Below, in pieces: positions 21,864-24,800 of a stretch of DNA of 64,000 nt; the stretch's first letter is position 1; each line of letters starts with the position of its first letter. The translations under genes were made by a program, and so were the position numbers. Source of the stretch: Obrimoposthia wandeli (Eukaryota); the NCBI GenBank assembly GCA_977020255.1, contig CDROCS010003044.1, positions 1-64,000 of the forward strand, written 5' to 3'. Under the pieces are notes generated by a model. It was not told where the DNA came from. It did not search any database and saw nothing but the letters and a program-made list of their open reading frames with translations.

Positions 21864-24800
21864 ATGACATTATCGTTAGATTTGACTAGCGATCATGTTT
21901 TTGAATTAAATGTGCCGCAACACTTTATAGAATCCTTAAAAGTAACAGTTGGAGAATTTGCTACTTGTAAAGTGCAATTCGGTATCAAGGTGGAGTTTGA
22001 GAATGTGAGCAGTGAAACAATGGAATGTTTTAACAAGGCCACCAAGCATTCACTCCTGCTTTTAATTGATAGTATAGAGTCTCTCAATGAAAATTGAGGT
22101 AGCCTCAGAATGCCAGTAATTGGGGTTCCAGAAAGTACTTGAAATGTATTTCATAGTAACCTTTCGAACAACAATAATCAATAGACTGCAGGGGAGTGCA
22201 TTTATTCCAACATGTGACGTGCCGGAAGGCATCAAGGTGCATCATTAATATTCAAAATTCTGTGTACTTTTGTTTCATTTACAGCATTTTAGCTGTTTTG
22301 AAATATAATATTATTCCGGGACATAGGTATAGAGCAGCCCAATATAATGAATTTTTATGGGAATTGGAAATACGAGGACGAGGATATGCCAATGAGACTA
22401 TCGGATATTCCGAGATTTAAAGAGAAAATCCATCTCTCTCAATCAATGTATTTTCCTATAATAGGTTTGGACTATTGCTAATAATCAGGAGATTTTCAAG
22501 AATCCGTTTATTGATGATATATCGACTTGTAATCCTTGATGGGGGATCCGGTGAATATCCTTCTTCTTATTGAGGAGAATGGATCTTATCACTATACTGC
22601 AGTACCGAAACTTAATAAATTACTGAATTTGCGTAATAGAGGAGTAGGTACGCGAATTCAGTGTACTTGGTGTCATAAGTGCCTGCACGGGTTCCGGAGA
22701 GCGCTCAGCTACGAAAGCATATATTCCTCTCTGTCGCATGAATCTAGATCGAGCACGTTATTCACCATGCCCGTGACCCAGATTACGTTTAAGGATTTCA
22801 AGAAAACAATATCTCCGCCCTTCGTCGTATATGGGGATTTCGAGTCGGTTCTTGCTCCTCACGGGATTCATCATCAGATTCATCTCCCGATAGCGGCCGG
22901 TATGTTGATGTCTCCTGCTTTCCGCGATTGGATACACCCAAGACTATTCGGTCTATACTGAGAAAAACTGTGTAGTTGACTTTCTGAAGAAACTGGAGGA
23001 CTTGGTGAAGACTGTGGTGCTGCCCTGGTACAGACAGCATGCAGAGGAAGTTATGAAGCCACTTACACTGAACAGATAGCGAGTTACGTAGCGGCCACAA
23101 AATGTTACCTCTGTAATAAGCGCTGCGTAAATAAGGTCCGGGATCATGATCACATGACCGGAGAATTTCTTGGAGCTGCCCATTCCAACTGTAATTTGTC
23201 ACGAAGACTGAATCGTGCTCTCCCAATAGTTTTCCATAACCTGAGAGTACGATCTCCATCACATTCTCAAGCATGCACTGAAAGTTTCCTTATTGAGTAT
23301 TTCAGTGATTCCCCAATCAACTGAAAAATCTAGAGATGCTCGCGCACATTGATGGAGTGTGTATTCGATTTATCGACTCACTTCAGTTTCTGGATAGCAG
23401 TCTCGAGAAACTCGTTGGAAATTTAGGAAATGTCCTGATTACAAATTCAGTTTTCCCACCTCATCTCATCACGGAAAAAGGAATCTTCCCATACGACCTA
23501 GCGGTATCCGAGACTGCGCTACGGGAAATCACCAAAGCCTCCCCGCAAAATGGAAACGATGACATCAGCAATGACCAGTACGAGCATGCAAAGAAGGTAT
23601 GGACCGATCTCCAGTGCACTTCACCTGGGACTATATGTTGGTTTACCTGAAAATCGACGTATACCTGCTCGCCGATGTCTTCACGGCTTTCCGGTATCGG
23701 GCTATTTCAGACGACGGACTGGAACCTCTCTAACTTCTTCTCGATACCTGGTATGTTTAAATATACTGTTTGTAAAGTTTTTGTAATAAAAATACTTCAA
23801 ATTATTTTTGTATATTTTCTGTAATTTTTTGAAAAATAATCAATTTAATCAATTTCAGGATTAACCTTCGCGAGCGCCTTCAAATCATTACTGGGCACCG
23901 AGGCAACCGATACAAGCCCAGCTATTCCGGCAGGACCTACAGTGAACTCATCCAGGATCCGGAAATGCATCAGATGTTTCATGAAGGAATTGAGGCGGAA
24001 TGACCTTTCGTCAACGAACATCACGTATCCACGGAGAATGGTGACACTTTTATTATATATCGACGTGAATAATTTGAGTATGGCTGGGCCATGTCCCAAT
24101 TTCTACCGGTAGGAAAGTTTTCATGGGTGATTGATCGGGTAGAGTTAGGGACTTAATATCAGAACTTTCATATAAGGATTTAAGCTGTAGTCAACATGCA
24201 CATTTAGTTGAAGTCGACTTGTGCATTCTGATAATTTACATGATTATTCAGATGATCTACCTTAGCTCCTAAAAAGGATTGCCCACCTGGTAGCAAAACA
24301 GCTAAACTACTTTTTGACTCATTAGTAAAAAGACACTATCTTGTCCATTTTCGTTCATGCTTCAGATGTATCTTAGACCTCGGTGCAAAGATACAAGCTG
24401 TTCATCGTGCAGTCAATTTTGAACAAACTAATGTCTTTGAGCAGTATATTAAATCAAATTTAGAAAAGAGGGCTATGACAACAAATCATTTTGAAAAAAA
24501 CTATTAAAGCTTAATTCTCTTTATAGAAAATTGATTGAAAATTTGAAAAAGAGAATTAACCTAAGAATCTGTAATACAGTACAGAAACTTGTAACTTATT
24601 GTAGTAAGGCTCAATTTCGTAAGTCTATAGAAATATATGATGACCTTGTTGCAGTATTACTCAACAAGGATATGATTTGTTTGGATATACCAAGTTCCAT
24701 AGGGCAGGTGGTATTAGATCTGAGTAAGTAAAGGATGTACGAGCTCCAATACACTCAGTTAGAGAAGTATATAGTACAATTTAACTGTTCCATTAGAATC

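Follow-up and report, generated by a model that had tools for sequence, protein, structure and literature searches.

A predicted spliceosomal intron fixed in the pPolB genes of one Maverick/Polinton clade of Obrimoposthia wandeli

The polymerase gene (pPolB) of one clade of Maverick/Polinton elements in the Obrimoposthia wandeli genome is very probably split by a true spliceosomal intron, which was probably gained once in the ancestor of the clade and now occupies one and the same position in about 3,200 copies. The insert was met in the window, meaning the whole 64,000-nt stretch of DNA that was analysed (contig CDROCS010003044.1); coordinates refer to the window unless a locus is named. A preliminary description had reported a 108-nt phase-1 GT-AG insert at G|G in FFSIP-G-LTF of one of its pPolB genes, that of element 2, and the sequence bears this out.

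Results

The insert occupies positions 23751-23858 (+ strand) and interrupts the Gly codon of FFSIP-G-LTF; its prediction as a GT-AG, phase-1 spliceosomal intron was based on reading the sequence and comparing copies. It begins with GTATGT, ends with TTTCAG and is placed at CCTG|G. In-frame stops are met if it is translated through. GC content was 15.7% in the insert versus approximately 50% and 46% in the flanking exons of the element-2 family, and the chance of GT and AG ends given the insert's own composition was approximately 0.003, with both registers counted. The combination of GTATGT and 108 nt is peculiar to the window copy. A 111-nt form (GTTTGT...TTTCAG) was present in 28 of the 29 other best-matching copies, and the remaining one was unmatched by the intron pattern. 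Over 3 kb the window copy has 23 private deletions, 19 private insertions and 60 private substitutions, whereas ten other copies have no more than 2, 2 and 15, respectively; the window copy is thus decayed or poorly polished. Because it is also left-truncated, the argument rests on the other copies.

Exon 1 of element-2 pPolB (21290-23750, +; start approximate) was mapped from other copies and matches Pfam PF03175 and PF02945. It comprises a CPQC zinc-finger-like N-terminus, an endonuclease-VII-like domain and the exonuclease motifs YGDFES, HNLRGYD and YxxxDV. Exon 2 (23859-25307, +) begins with a clade-specific Pro/Ser/Thr loop, followed by IRGG and polymerase motifs A, B and C. Both exons are frameshifted in the window copy. 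The intron is thus placed exactly between the exonuclease motifs and polymerase motifs A-C, so that an unspliced message could yield no polymerase. The variable loop lies about ten codons 3' of the intron (23890-23940; loci L195-L224 and L355-L384); it ranges from about 4 to more than 30 residues, is present in all carrier families and is absent from continuous relatives.

In four sequencing runs, summed contig depth rose approximately 5-9-fold at L002:1690-2110 (window ~23840-24260), covering the 3' end of the intron and the first 400 nt of exon 2. A stand-alone piece was absent among the fetched loci, and the rise is possibly due to a collapsed array or a derivative repeat. Joints matching the intron ends were absent among 4 joints and the 15 shown of 69 in these runs, which are of unknown kind, come from one sample, cover the insert like DNA and were searched as contigs, which drop rare variants; this absence is therefore given no weight as evidence.

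The left-most surviving piece of element 2 in the window is an ORF upstream of pPolB (20671-21114, +), labelled 'DEDD-like' from a DFE motif. The right terminal inverted repeat (25419-27021, +) contains a 186-nt tandem array and ends in ..CCCTACT. Integrase, ATPase and capsid genes are absent from this copy and present in others, which comprise long terminal inverted repeats with the 186-nt array, AGTAG ends, a TBP-like gene, an A32-like ATPase, an integrase, two capsid-like ORFs, a protease and pPolB. PF03175 was matched on both pPolB exons, the polymerase and exonuclease motifs were found, and 221 homologs were recovered. The retroviral-like DDE integrase was matched in another copy of the family (PF00665, E 2.9e-13), and element 3 also has an integrase. 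The packaging ATPase (PF04665, E 1.1e-6) and adenovirus-like protease (PF00770, E 1.7e-4) were likewise matched in the element-2 family. The candidate double jelly-roll major capsid protein had no Pfam match and was assigned by feature likeness in the Atlas, at 0.98 to DJR-like clusters with PF21738 on 15-65% of their members, with a recognition score below the strong range. A second ORF, here labelled putative minor capsid, matched unnamed clusters at 0.97, in which Preplasmiviricota are commonest. The integrase, ATPase, capsid and protease genes of element 2 are plain ORFs. Perfect 6-bp target duplications flanked three of the four carrier elements in which both end motifs were found; a fifth element was without full motifs. 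Exons differed by approximately 1.4% among copies in a best-match sample, which would indicate recent copying only.

Mavericks are very abundant in this genome. Maverick protein matches were found in 14 of 39 sampled 10-kb stretches and covered 32,743 of 390,000 bases; the stretches were taken at round coordinates in contigs from an earlier match list and are not a strict random sample. Other remains lie in the window itself: a decayed third pPolB fragment just past the right end of element 2 (27340-28221; ~70% DNA identity to element 2), capsid and protease fragments of another Maverick (13884-15375), an inverted 272-nt piece of element-3 pPolB (16512-16784) and a degraded DEAD-box helicase fragment (36694-37065, -). 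ORFs adjoining the core genes in the E4 family (L193:150-1067, L193:2070-2846 and L192:8940-9497) include one for a protein with BIR + RING (inhibitor-of-apoptosis-like) and one for a protein resembling a dual-specificity phosphatase.

The spread of the insert was assessed over 1.35 Gb of sequence in 6,912 contigs. Wnt genes are present in this genome, which marks the host as an animal. When the element-2 region was used as query, all 40 scored matches (the best 40 of 1,446 candidates) spanned it entirely. The exon-2 start motif of the clade was preceded by AG in 3,205 places, among which a precise loss in families with exon 1 ending in CCAG would be hidden, and by another dinucleotide in 30, with no control matches. 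All 30 non-AG copies were opened: 29 had an AT-rich insert upstream and an altered acceptor, one was rearranged and none was a precise loss. In 30 opened AG loci the donor was GT in 26, AT in three and not located in one, and lengths were 42-425 nt. A donor-pattern search gave 242 more matches versus one in the control, and further families were recovered in this way; the second carrier family was first met by chance in a flank. In total, at least five families carry an insert of 42-425 nt, in any frame, at the same nucleotide. The insert is a fixed character of one pPolB clade, and the possibility that it was unique to the window copy, which the preliminary description had named as refuting its reading, is excluded.

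A search for the insert elsewhere, as the same description had suggested, returned it only in pPolB context where checked. Among the 40 matches scored (the best of 446 candidates), 24 coincided with pPolB-region matches and 14 were left uninspected. Four fetched loci, two of them among the 24, were in pPolB context, and the 39 sampled stretches contained no match.

Several candidate observations were rejected. An apparently low diversity of the element-2 intron (pi 0.001) was an artefact of best-match selection, other copies having introns of 110-148 nt. A 129-nt call ('E6') and a 119-nt call were false acceptors in decayed copies. L238 was without pPolB context and L237 was an element-3 copy, so neither is a new intron family. 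L237 is broken at L237:3971, exactly at the intron-homologous site, by sequence that was read as a non-LTR reverse transcriptase.

The insert has the features of a U2-type intron, with GT...AG ends that restore the frame and an interior that varies in length and sequence between conserved exons. Lengths fell into all three frames (remainders 0/1/2: 7/2/5 in family E4 and 11/6/9 in family E5). In E4, four shared non-triplet indels were counted over 156 columns of the intron and none over 640 columns of exon; in E5 the counts were four over 173 and one over 656. In-frame stops were present in 27 of 27, 14 of 14 and 24 of 26 inserts. The shortest versions are 42-45 nt and GC content is 13-23%; no Rfam family was matched in window 19000-51000. 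When the element-2 intron was compared with seven other types, none aligned better than shuffled sequences (11-176 of 200 shuffles scored as high). Several of the seven retain a residual likeness to each other, and this pattern is as expected from descent with drift.

Between four families, pS was 0.68-0.88 and pN 0.12-0.23 on both exons. By these values purifying selection acted on both exons after the insertion, while synonymous sites became saturated, which implies that both halves were kept functional once the insert was present. Saturation of dS also means that the intron is left without a date. Host introns could be placed in CCT and TBP-family genes; they have GT-AG ends, and some are 43-143 nt long. 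GTTTGT, the commonest donor of the insert, was absent among approximately 22 best-fitting host donors, a small and approximate sample. A derivation of this donor from Gly-Leu-Ser codons by target duplication was considered and set aside, synonymous sites being saturated. About twenty chaperonin genes without introns were also met (L150-L173, on several contigs); the one translated was bacterial GroEL-like, which suggests co-assembled bacteria.

Host-type splicing of the pPolB insert, as first proposed, is strongly indicated by the comparison of copies and families. The accompanying proposal of long nuclear residence holds in part. The intron appears older than the near-saturation of synonymous sites between families; nuclear transcription would suffice for this, and continuous residence in the chromosomes of one host is not needed.

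Element 3 of the window is unbroken at the homologous site, FFSLPGLSW (45407-45433, +), as the preliminary description had stated. Thirty of 30 element-3 loci, the window's own included, were continuous there, in a search whose query spanned the site and so favoured continuous copies. Element 3 is not intron-free, carrying three predicted introns in the pPolB leader and one in its TBP-like gene. Predicted intron A (42442-42488, +; 47 nt, GTAAGA..TTTCAG, phase 0) follows ATG CCT ATG and was found in 15 of 25 loci, with the next exon phase-consistent in 14 of 14. Predicted intron B (43108-43189, +; 82 nt, 78-85 nt across copies, phase 1) was found in 24 of 25 loci and predicted intron C (43277-43323, +; 47 nt, phase 1) in 23 of 25; the 87-nt exon between them was phase-consistent in 22 of 22 and in the window copy contains an in-frame stop. 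All three are GT-AG. Being without cross-family support, they are less certain than the element-2 intron.

The remainder of element 3 (45962-50754, -) comprises an integrase (rve + chromo), an A32-like ATPase, the TBP-like gene and a right end ..CCTACT. The predicted intron of the TBP-like gene (48904-48941, -; 38 nt, phase 1) is at the same position as in the element-2 and E4 TBP-like genes, where inserts of 37-41 nt are present; another group is continuous. Among 22 TBP-like loci, 8 had the intron, 9 were continuous and 5 were unclear, and the tree of this gene is too short to give the direction of change. Capture of this intron together with a host gene finds no support, the host TBP being without an intron at the matching first-repeat position. 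The TBP-like gene (PF00352) of these Mavericks was located at 48572-49070 (-) and at L080:1295-1621, with 19,768 first-look family candidates in the genome.

Elements 2 and 3 are 58% identical in the polymerase domain and their polymerases are not sisters. The contrast first drawn between them, real at the site, is weaker than implied, also in view of the predicted introns of element 3 itself. Over window 45956-48233 and its counterpart in L080, amino-acid identity was 68% for the integrase and 74% for the ATPase, compared with 58% for pPolB, which is consistent with module exchange or with different rates.

The direction of change was assessed from homologs and from a tree. Of the 120 homologs listed among the 221 found, 111 match a motif that runs unbroken across the site. 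The other nine end ahead of the site, contain a frameshift or show a variant motif, and none of them terminates just past it; a truncated product of approximately 800 aa would fall inside the length window searched. These database proteins are gene calls that ignore introns, and intron-bearing relatives outside this genome may be under-sampled among them. Viral contigs gave no relatives with DNA context. The 13 loci found in metagenome contigs were all at 29-34% identity or very short, and a PDB sequence search gave no match (best E 0.78).

Carrier families are 73-79% identical to each other and 50-60% identical to continuous families. The tree was built by a quick search, without bootstraps, from the region downstream of the intron; 47 of 73 rows were used, 26 near-redundant or distant rows being dropped, and carrier families E7, L371 and L381 were left off. 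The four carrier families included form one clade on a long stem (SH-aLRT 100, and 1.0 in a separate FastTree tree), with one change of state. This clade is nested in a 22-row clade (support 99) whose other members are all continuous: element 3, two more families of this genome and proteins from the database. Further outgroups beyond it are continuous too. All 43 remaining rows of the tree were scored continuous, in successive supported outgroups. Support for the sister group of the carrier clade was 88, unstarred, and at its base the 22-row clade branches in an open fork. The earlier proposal of gain or loss within the lineage is thereby supported, and the simplest and likely reading of the trees is that the intron was gained once, on the stem leading to the element-2 clade.

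Discussion

Under the reading preferred here, host RNA polymerase II would transcribe pPolB in the nucleus, and the host spliceosome would remove the insert and join the exonuclease half to the polymerase half. The polymerase would copy the element as DNA for integration, as in the established Maverick model, and the intron would pass to every copy, its interior having since drifted neutrally. The intron probably persists because DNA-to-DNA copying and integration lack a reverse-transcribed stage, which would erase introns. It may have arisen as a repair insertion, a small duplication or a now vanished mobile insert at a G|G site.

An intron that was already present in the ancestor of the wider polymerase group, with losses in element 3 and in every other continuous lineage, would fit the open fork at the base of the 22-row clade, the bias of database homologs toward continuous genes, and the TBP-like intron common to elements 2 and 3, by which some introns predate these families. 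It is nevertheless quite improbable, since the 43 other rows of the tree are continuous and many independent precise losses would be needed, while not one precise loss was found among the 30 non-AG copies of the carrier clade. It is also possible, though unlikely, that a real intron has been recruited as a switch, its retention giving an exonuclease-only product or a degraded message and its splicing licensing replication in certain cells. The position exactly between exonuclease and polymerase motifs, the nearly constant presence of in-frame stops and the want of precise losses would suit a switch; yet stops are expected in any AT-rich intron, the lack of losses is what an element that is not reverse-transcribed should show, conservation is missing from the interior, and element 3, which does without this intron, is abundant.

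That the insert is a small mobile element or a disabling insertion whose GT and AG ends are fortuitous, in non-autonomous copies that borrow polymerase from continuous families, was suggested by the broken state of most copies, the window's included, and by the presence in the same genome of continuous families that could supply the polymerase in trans. This account is already largely refuted and is given very little credence: after the insertion purifying selection acted on both exons as synonymous sites reached saturation, the ends hold as the interior changes, and every checked occurrence of the insert lay in pPolB context. Removal or bypass without the spliceosome, by a self-splicing intron, an intein, a frameshift or two separate genes, is the least credible of the readings weighed here, even though group I introns are reported, in the available text of PMC12220804, from protist polinton-like viruses. 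Some versions are as short as 42-45 nt, GC content is 13-23%, lengths occupy every frame, stops lie in frame, the phase-1 GT-AG ends do not vary, and no Rfam family matches; all of this stands against such a mechanism. The spliceosomal intron gained once thus remains the favoured explanation.

A related protein-primed polymerase, that of adenoviruses, is expressed via host splicing of the E2B mRNA, which has a tiny first coding exon. This exon resembles the three-codon piece that precedes intron A of element 3. Adenoviruses do not integrate, and the E2B splice lies ahead of the main ORF, not at a point between the exonuclease and polymerase domains.

The elements described here share pPolB, integrase, ATPase, protease and capsid genes, terminal inverted repeats as well as target duplications of 6 bp with vertebrate Mavericks (Barreat & Katzourakis 2021, PMC8097293, in the text available). 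Intact vertebrate Mavericks were observed in that text to have no introns in their genes, in agreement with Kapitonov & Jurka 2006 as cited there, the 'intact' class being defined by intronless ORFs. Unlike in those elements, the core polymerase is split here across a whole clade. Nematode Mavericks (Widen et al., 10.1101/2022.07.12.499685) also carry intron-containing genes; in the portion of that preprint consulted, it is captured host cargo that has the introns, and the core genes are described as intronless. The introns predicted here belong to the polymerase and TBP-like gene of the element itself. The dinoflagellate polinton-like elements with introners (PMC12166617, in part) likewise contain spliceosomal-type introns inside proviruses. 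There, known introner families have inserted repeatedly and for the most part outside coding regions. The pPolB intron, by contrast, holds a single old position that is fixed in a radiation; its interior has diverged, and where checked no copy lay outside the gene. The TBP-like gene appears in a figure legend of PMC8502044.

A literature search returned no description of a spliceosomal intron fixed in the pPolB of an animal Maverick; supplements and Repbase were outside its scope, so that prior annotation is possible. Such an intron goes unmentioned in the available portions of PMC10748475, PMC11296320, PMC11244446, PMC6431247, 10.64898/2026.10.13.758929 and 10.64898/2026.07.28.741278.

One broader and rather doubtful reading is that the Mavericks of this animal are becoming dependent on the spliceosome and gaining core-gene introns lineage by lineage, the intron between exonuclease and polymerase acting as a host-controlled gate on replication. 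It is drawn from the one intron in the polymerase of the element-2 clade, the three predicted in the element-3 leader and the one in the TBP-like gene common to families. A regulatory role of the intron is no more than possible.

Because descriptions of Maverick core genes, and screens for them, take these to be intronless ORFs, a spliced clade would be overlooked or counted as dead; the clade described here has more than 3,000 copies in one genome. To our knowledge, well-polarised intron gains in animal-associated genes are uncommon. The pPolB gain would have a resolved direction; its relatives without introns are found in the same genome, and its many descendants show an interior that drifts between ends that are held. 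Host control of splicing would put transcription of the element in the nucleus and may restrict the hosts to which Mavericks can move. If introns are indeed being gained lineage by lineage, the thousands of copies and the intron-free sister families would make de novo gain, and its cost, directly measurable.
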